Assembly (NCBI RefSeq): GCF_030013595.1
Contig: NZ_CP122768.1
DNA length: 64,000 bases
Source: Escherichia coli
Lineage (GTDB): Bacteria > Pseudomonadota > Gammaproteobacteria > Enterobacterales > Enterobacteriaceae
Reading direction: 5' to 3' (one strand)
Position numbers and translations under genes: made by a program. This document shows positions 8,701 to 9,512 of the stretch, piece after piece (within the stretch, counting starts at the first letter, position 1; every line of letters begins with the position of its first letter). The notes beneath the pieces were generated by a model, which did not search any database, had not been told where the DNA came from, and saw only the letters and a program-made list of their open reading frames with translations.

Positions 8701-8903
8701 AGATCACCGGACGCGAACATACCCATCTGGCGCTGCACAAAGAGGACGAGAAGATTCGCTTTCGCGATATTCAGGCGCAGCCACGTAAAATTATCTCCAG
8801 CCCCACATGGTCCGGTCTGGAAAGCGATCACGTTTCCTATAACGCGGGATACACCAACGTTCATGAGTTAATTCCGTGGCGCACGCTGTCGGGACGCCAG
8901 TAG
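5775..8903 (+). CDS. narZ: Respiratory nitrate reductase 2 alpha subunit NarZ, truncated by an in-frame TAG at 8901-8903
   Basis: MSKLLDRFRYFKQKGETFADGHG start; molybdopterin oxidoreductase signatures (HGVNCTGSCSW); the next ORF in the same frame continues the NarG/NarZ C-terminus. Confidence 0.85.
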   Translation: MSKLLDRFRYFKQKGETFADGHGQVMHSNRDWEDSYRQRWQFDKIVRSTHGVNCTGSCSWKIYVKNGLVTWEIQQTDYPRTRPDLPNHEPRGCPRGASYSWYLYSANRLKYPLIRKRLIELWREALKQHSDPVLAWASIMNDPQKCLSYKQVRGRGGFIRSNWQELNQLIAAANVWTIKTYGPDRVAGFSPIPAMSMVSYAAGTRYLSLLGGTCLSFYDWYCDLPPASPMTWGEQTDVPESADWYNSSYIIAWGSNVPQTRTPDAHFFTEVRYKGTKTIAITPDYSEVAKLCDQWLAPKQGTDSALAMAMGHVILKEFHLDNPSDYFINYCRRYSDMPMLVMLEPRDDGSYVPGRMIRASDLVDGLGESNNPQWKTVAVNTAGELVVPNGSIGFRWGEKGKWNLESIAAGTETELSLTLLGQHDAVAGVAFPYFGGIENPHFRSVKNNPVLVRQLPVKNLTLADGSTCPVVSVYDLVLANYGLDRGLEDENSAKDYAEIKPYTPAWGEQITGVPRQYIETIAREFADTAHKTHGRSMIILGAGVNHWYHMDMNYRGMINMLIFCGCVGQSGGGWAHYVGQEKLRPQTGWLPLAFALDWNRPPRQMNSTSFFYNHSSQWRYEKVSAQELLSPLADASKYSGHLIDFNVRAERMGWLPSAPQLGRNPLGIKAEADKAGLSPTEFTAQALKSGGLRMACEQPDSGSNHPRNLFVWRSNLLGSSGKGHEYMQKYLLGTESGIQGQELGASDGIKPEEVEWQTAAIEGKLDLLVTLDFRMSSTCLFSDIVLPTATWYEKDDMNTSDMHPFIHPLSAAVDPAWESRSDWEIYKGIAKAFSQVCVGHLGKETDVVLQPLLHDSPAELSQPCEVLDWRKGECDLILGKTAPNIVAVERDYPATYERFTSLGPLMDKLGNGGKGISWNTQDEIDFLGKLNYTKREGPAQGRPLIDTAIDASEVILALAPETNGHVAVKAWQALGEITGREHTHLALHKEDEKIRFRDIQAQPRKIISSPTWSGLESDHVSYNAGYTNVHELIPWRTLSGRQ

Positions 8904-9512
8904 CTCTATCAGGATCATCCGTGGATGCGTGCTTTTGGTGAAAGCCTGGTGGCTTATCGCCCGCCTATCGACACCCGTAGCGTCAGTGAAATGCGCCAGA
9001 TACCGCCAAACGGCTTCCCGGAAAAAGCACTTAACTTCCTGACGCCGCATCAGAAATGGGGCATTCACTCAACCTACAGTGAAAACCTGCTAATGCTGAC
9101 GCTCTCTCGCGGTGGACCGATTGTCTGGATTAGCGAAACCGATGCCCATGAACTGACCATTGTCGATAACGACTGGGTGGAAGTGTTTAACGCCAACGGC
9201 GCGCTGACTGCCCGCGCGGTGGTCAGCCAACGTGTACCGCCGGGTATGACCATGATGTATCACGCTCAGGAACGCATTATGAATATCCCGGGCTCGGAAG
9301 TGACCGGAATGCGCGGCGGCATTCATAACTCGGTCACCCGCGTTTGTCCGAAACCAACGCATATGATTGGCGGTTACGCGCAGCTGGCCTGGGGCTTTAA
9401 TTACTACGGCACCGTCGGCTCGAACCGTGACGAATTCATCATGATCCGCAAGATGAAGAACGTTAACTGGCTGGATGATGAAGGTCGCGATCAGGTACAG
9501 GAGGCGAAAAAA
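8904..9512 (+). pseudogene. narZ: narZ 3' remnant (last ~203 codons) downstream of the in-frame amber; same frame, runs into narY without a stop
   Basis: Translation LYQDHPWMRAFGESLVAYRPPIDTRSV...DDEGRDQVQEAKK is colinear with the NarG C-terminus; 5775 + 3 x 1246 = 9513. Confidence 0.7.

Follow-up and report, generated by a model that had tools for sequence, protein, structure and literature searches.

NarZ is the catalytic alpha subunit of NRZ, the RpoS-dependent second respiratory nitrate reductase of Escherichia coli, which is a minor, stationary-phase isoenzyme. Its paralogue NarG, the alpha subunit of nitrate reductase A (PDB 1q16, 1r27), has equal length and the same domain order. In this enzyme family the C-terminal molybdopterin-dinucleotide-binding domain helps to hold the Mo-bisMGD cofactor, and a Mo-bisMGD enzyme without a domain of the Molydop_binding type cannot hold it. 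Our literature search found no paper on a premature stop in E. coli narZ; sequence records of an amber allele of the type described here nevertheless exist for two groups, ST167 and the clone to which our genome belongs. In ST167 genomes (M217, B7R44_RS12380; ECONIH6, C2U45_RS01885; 51008369SK1, DNQ41_RS11760) codon 1043 is changed from CAG to TAG and narY, narW and narV are intact, and RefSeq annotates narZ in the ST167 genomes with TAG as a pseudogene with an 'internal stop'. The narZ of the pig isolates ETEC4068, ETEC6333 and ETEC6334 (QDW67_RS12605, 'missing C-terminus') is altered by A6 to A7 slippage that removes the stop codon and brings narY into frame.

The gene studied here occupies positions 5775-9512 on the plus strand of the window, the stretch of 64,000 nucleotides that was analysed. 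It comprises 1246 codons with an internal amber codon, lacks its own stop codon, and differs at 8 of 3741 bases from the intact narZ of strain HCP5S3_I2. The NCBIfam model TIGR01580 (narG) matches both fragments, and narZ was told apart from narG by its context, since the order narU-narZ-narY-narW-narV is present with neighbours of the NarU, NarH, NarJ and NarI types and is syntenic in annotated relatives. The identification as narZ in the first-pass annotation is thus borne out. NarG is intact in its own operon (narGHJI), outside this window.

Direct reading of positions 8895-8927 gives CGC CAG TAG CTC TAT CAG GAT CAT CCG TGG ATG. Translation from the ATG at 5775 runs ...WRTLSGRQ, stop, LYQDHPWMRAFGE..., with LYQDHPWMRAF directly after the stop, and the TAG at 8901-8903 is codon 1043 (5775 + 3 x 1042 = 8901), exactly as had been claimed. 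The N-terminal open reading frame (5775-8903, plus strand) encodes 1042 amino acids followed by TAG and alone scores 1956.4 bits against TIGR01580 (cut-off 1084.15), covering model positions 1-1043 of 1235, while the C-terminal fragment matches positions 1052-1235. The closest intact relatives, HCP5S3_I2, MEI003, VCSW7, ETEC4068 and K-12 MG1655, have CAG at codon 1043, and NarG (PDB 1r27) reads ...WRTLSGRQQLYQDH..., that is Gln-Gln, at the aligned position. Every intact narZ orthologue examined and the paralogue NarG therefore have CAG or Gln at this position, which confirms the proposed change of Gln to amber and the truncation of the alpha subunit, with residues 1043-1246 cut off. The first-pass annotation also held that a NarG-like C-terminus continues in the same frame for about 200 codons; it does so for 203, although that reading missed that the frame then runs without a stop into narY.

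The position of the amber relative to the domains indicates its consequence. The region coding for Molydop_binding (PF01568; 9030-9374, plus strand; NarZ residues 1086-1200) was located by a Pfam match to residues 316-430 of a fragment starting at residue 771 (i-Evalue 5.8e-20) and lies wholly downstream of the amber. The precomputed Pfam annotation of public assemblies likewise places NarG_dom_V on the N-terminal fragment and Molydop_binding on a C-terminal fragment of 196 amino acids. A single uninterrupted frame over the whole of TIGR01580, Molydop_binding included, is not present here because of the stop at codon 1043. Since the frame is broken there and Molydop_binding lies downstream, narZ in this genome is a pseudogene of the TIGR01580 family and not a functional member. 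With the whole domain lost, the catalytic subunit of NRZ is most likely dead, as far as can be judged from its sequence.

The T at 8901 was compared with related genomes. The closest complete RefSeq genome, that of the pig isolate HCP5S3_I2, is 99.9% identical over positions 1-44574 of the window, with 36 mismatches and 4 gaps, and has CAG. Each difference from HCP5S3_I2 was polarised with the outgroups MEI003 and VCSW7, and both outgroups indicate that the T at 8901, an additional A at 9507 and the change of C to T at 8407 are derived on the branch of the window; the stop is therefore derived relative to these three close intact orthologues. We then compared 10 contigs from separate NCBI and Logan assemblies, which were fetched as carriers of the two clone products described below and have differing accession series. 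Over 12-19 kb these contigs share 99.95-99.98% identity with the window, and all ten have T at 8901, C at 8407 and A6 at 9507. The assemblies (GCA_021649585.1, GCA_002925925.1, GCA_036246625.1 and others) share the haplotype and the amber of our genome, and their narZ is split into a product of 1042 amino acids with Pro878 (P0031, STE01847.1; 39 public contigs) and a tail of 196 amino acids read from the ATG at 8925 (P0032, STE01848.1; 59 public contigs). They retain Pro878 and A6, to which our genome adds P878L and an additional A that fuses the tail to narY. Exact look-up in the public collection retrieved neither intact full-length versions of this narZ haplotype nor the 1042- and 1083-amino-acid N-terminal fragments of the window itself; the former product is missing because of the private P878L and not because of the TAG. 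A metagenome scan with an 85-base pattern combining the haplotype and TAG gave no match.

These data show that the narZ amber is no error but an allele fixed in a natural clone that has been well sampled. The first-pass annotation had proposed alignment to a reference narZ, which gave CAG in K-12 MG1655 and the closest intact relatives, and had named CAG on resequencing as the result that would overturn it; comparison of assemblies rather than reads gave T in all 10 independently assembled clone genomes, from several projects. Its interpretation of the amber is supported. We consider that narZ of this E. coli is a genuine premature-stop pseudogene, a clone-wide allele in ordinary decay, with a probability of about 0.85.

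The proposed course of events is as follows. A single C>T (CAG>TAG, Gln1043 to amber) in an ancestor of the clone would have inactivated narZ. Ribosomes would stop at 8903 and release a protein of 1042 residues without the last 204, active NarZ would be absent, and NarGHI and Nap would have to carry nitrate respiration. Later, this genome would have acquired P878L and, by +1 slippage, one more A in the terminal A-run; such changes in a narZ already inactivated would be ordinary decay, with selection relaxed.

The other genes of the locus, all on the plus strand, are intact, and each exceeds the curated cut-off of its model. Upstream lies narU (4292-5680), which encodes a nitrate/nitrite transporter of 462 amino acids, matches NCBIfam NF011608 over its full length with 1019.8 bits (cut-off 836) and is syntenic with the relatives. 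Downstream, narY (9513-11057) encodes the beta subunit of 514 amino acids (TIGR01660 narH, 979.5 bits), and the exact protein is found on at least 1000 public contigs. It is followed by narW (11057-11752), coding for a chaperone of 231 amino acids (NF011628, 510.7 bits against a cut-off of 410), and narV (11749-12429), coding for the gamma subunit of 226 amino acids (TIGR00351 narI, 423.2 bits). About 610 untranslated bases now precede narY, and polarity of this segment on narY, narW and narV is possible; a search of 8700-9700 for a promoter or terminator lying between the amber and narY found no consensus match. narY has its own Shine-Dalgarno sequence, GGAGG at 9500-9504, at a spacing of 8 nt to the ATG, compared with 7 without the extra A, and its independent initiation should be little affected by the insertion. 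With this site and its own start, NarY, NarW and NarV could still be made, perhaps at a lower level.

The two further lesions in narZ had escaped the first reading, and both are private to this genome among the clone assemblies compared. At codon 878 (8406-8408) the C>T at 8407 turns CCA into CTA and Pro into Leu; this proline is conserved in NarG (GECDLIPGKTAP). At the end of the gene, an A7 run (9507-9513) replaces the A6 of the relatives. In these, narZ ends in ...GCG AAA AAA TGA, the TGA sharing the sequence ATGA with the start of narY, whereas the +1 insertion removes the TGA, and the narZ frame enters narY in frame. The amber and the extra A together generate an open reading frame of 710 amino acids (8925-11057, plus strand) that joins NarZ residues 1051-1246 to full-length NarY and matches the narG model at 1052-1235 and narH at 1-491 in one product; exact look-up found no copy of it in the public collection. 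The A6 to A7 slippage in the three pig ETEC genomes is of separate origin; their narZ has another haplotype (65 differences from the window), has no amber at codon 1043 and is predicted to give a full NarZ-NarY fusion.

Among the clone genomes, only the window showed P878L and A7; either may be an assembly error, and the homopolymer A7 is the more suspect of the two. Both private changes found in 18.9 kb fall inside the 3.7 kb of narZ, which would happen by chance with a probability of about 0.04, and this enrichment, if both are real, is suggestive only. The two changes sit on top of the shared TAG and fit continued decay after the inactivation of narZ; they argue that the gene is drifting as dead DNA in this genome. 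On the branch of the window, 7 of the 11 substitutions relative to HCP5S3_I2 are G:C>A:T, to which one homopolymer indel is added, and so are all four apparently private substitutions (8407, 19170, 22978 and 42856), although 19170 lies in an Rhs stretch covered by no clone contig and its private status was deduced indirectly. In length the branch does not exceed those of the sister assemblies, and these numbers are too small for any claim of a mutator or mutagenesis signature.

Comparison with the complete E. coli genomes revealed the same codon change on another background. The 71 bases around the TAG were matched exactly in 204 of 5426 complete genomes, all 204 of which carry the K-12-like allele at a neighbouring polymorphic site; of the 5396 complete genomes in which narZ was matched, 5192 lack the exact TAG-bearing sequence. 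We sampled six TAG members (M217, 219, ECONIH6, ESBL_DR28, 51008369SK1 and AR435, the last by listing) and aligned narZ for five. The five sequences are identical to each other, with 2 differences from MG1655 and 116 of 3741 from the window, and they have the K-12-like haplotype, Pro878, and A6 with the normal stop and the overlap with narY. M217, ECONIH6, 51008369SK1 and AR435, together with WCHEC005237 and SCEC020007, belong to ST167 (PMC6392093). The truncated ST167 product of 1042 amino acids occurs on 606 public contigs, strain Sanji among them.

The two haplotypes with TAG differ by 3.1%, and the haplotypes indicate either two or more origins of Q1043amber or its transfer within a patch no longer than 155 bp. 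Such a patch, entering the clone by very short recombination from an ST167-like donor, would concern the origin of the allele only and have the same consequence for narZ. It would agree with the identity of the 71 bases around the TAG in both lineages, and a tract of at most 155 bp between the nearest haplotype-distinguishing sites, 8834 and 8990, would leave no other trace. The tract would nevertheless be unusually short and require a donor from the minority lineage that carries TAG, while among spontaneous changes C>T transitions occur most often. The base is not set apart, in favour of either origin, by a templating repeat or a Dcm site: neither an inverted nor a direct repeat that could template the C>T was found within 400 bp on either side, and the base lies in CCAGC and not in the Dcm motif CCWGG, for which reasons a mutational hotspot at 8901 was also rejected. 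We regard an import as improbable and recurrent mutation as the more likely origin.

A stop in narZ can be reached by 133 routes through G:C>A:T changes, 33 of which are CAG>TAG, and by 451 routes of any kind. The return of the identical nonsense codon is one of the 133 G:C>A:T routes, which pure neutral decay does not predict, and this mild convergence with ST167 is the sole unusual point of the finding. A selective reason for it is unproven; one might be that a break between two domains, followed 22 nt later by an in-frame ATG, is unusually well tolerated.

A break of this kind would be tolerated if NRZ functioned as a split enzyme, with ribosomes restarting at the ATG at 8925 and the pieces of 1042 and 196 amino acids assembling into an active enzyme. 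Domain IV is a separate subunit in enzymes of the FwdB/FwdD type. In narZ, Pfam places the amber between NarG_dom_V on the N-terminal fragment and Molydop_binding on the C-terminal one, and the same codon is struck in two haplotypes separated by 116 differences in 3741 sites. Downstream, a possible restart site is formed by AGGA (8911-8914) and, 10 nt further, the in-frame ATG at 8925-8927 on the plus strand, from which the 196-amino-acid frame was called in public clone assemblies; a restart here would cost only 8 residues. Tolerance of the break would also explain why the identical amber became fixed in two unrelated successful clones. Against this, the spacing after AGGA is longer than optimal, and the split is not conserved across diverged lineages, being a recent derived state confined to two young clones. 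The narZ of our genome has in addition suffered two more hits, in a conserved proline and in the stop codon, as expected of a dead gene. A literature search on the domain boundaries of NarG found nothing. The proposal derives from sequence, and we consider a restart that yields active NRZ very unlikely; that the protein tolerates a split at codon 1043, where NarG domains V and IV meet, and that its fragments reconstitute an active or partly active NRZ, appears a shade less probable still. If it were true, a tolerated split would explain the independent fixation of the identical amber in ST167 and in the clone of the window, both of which are epidemiologically successful.

Ribosomes could also pass the amber, either with the help of a suppressor tRNA (for example a glnV of the supE type, with anticodon CUA and inserting Gln) or by efficient natural read-through, so that NarZ would still be made together with an Rhs protein whose gene is interrupted in the same way. 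This Rhs core protein gene (17872-22503, minus strand) carries a CAG>TAG at codon 1112 (19168-19170), as the first-pass annotation had noted, and CAG>TAG is the change that a Gln-inserting amber suppressor would heal in both genes. The link between the two ambers implied by the first-pass annotation is weak. The Rhs amber appears to be private to this genome and younger than that of narZ, given that the 1111-amino-acid Rhs fragment has no public record by exact look-up and that one member of the clone encodes an uninterrupted Rhs of 1559 amino acids. The narZ amber is clone-wide, and a common cause is therefore not needed, CAG>TAG being among the commonest routes to a stop. No tRNA gene, and thus no suppressor nearby, lies in the 64-kb window; a suppressor tRNA may be encoded elsewhere in the genome, or UAG may naturally be read through at a low level. 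In this genome read-through would yield a NarZ-NarY fusion of 1760 amino acids and not a normal NarZ, and we consider it a highly improbable explanation. In the 3' part of the Rhs gene (18454-18730) nine substitutions that set the window apart from HCP5S3_I2, MEI003 and VCSW7 lie close together, and the cluster looks like a recombination patch between Rhs copies and not like point mutations.

The least probable explanation, an error of sequencing or assembly at the TAG and a true CAG in the genome, could draw on the absence of the truncated product of the window from the public record and on the CAG of the closest complete RefSeq genomes, but it is ruled out by the ten independent clone assemblies from NCBI and Logan, the missing product is accounted for by P878L, and other SNPs of the same branch (McbR K6I and CurA A137P) recur in more than 100 blocks of the collection.

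Other differences were detected in the window and in the collection. The homology with HCP5S3_I2 ends inside hicB at 44574, and positions 44575-64000 resemble a prophage island, in which a serine recombinase (45972-47666) and tail genes are encoded and an IS1 InsA open reading frame lies at 48310. MEI003 has a similar insertion and its hicB is annotated as truncated; the hicAB antitoxin gene seems to be the integration site of the island. At 1269-1275, downstream of an ompC-like porin gene, HCP5S3_I2 carries an IS200/IS605 tnpA insertion that the window lacks. In the ISAs1 transposase gene ydcC (minus strand), a deletion of one base at 16338 splits the transposase into two open reading frames in the clone assemblies L019 and L024, and the copy in the window is intact. 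In the collection of complete E. coli genomes, narZ occurs in 25 records with a plasmid label, NZ_CP104527.1 (164 kb) among them; these are probably chromosomal fragments or misassigned replicons.

The premature stop in narZ has little weight alone, since NRZ is minor and NarGHI and Nap are presumably encoded elsewhere in the genome, and pseudogenes with nonsense mutations are commonplace in E. coli clones. As a marker of the clone the TAG is reliable, and annotators should label narZ as a pseudogene here. The locus records a stepwise decay in which the amber came first and was followed by a missense change and a stop-loss slippage, giving a chimeric narZ'-narY frame. The fixation of Q1043amber on a different haplotype in the high-risk ST167 makes this a small case of parallel loss of NRZ, which could be taken up in studies of nitrate respiration and gut colonisation.
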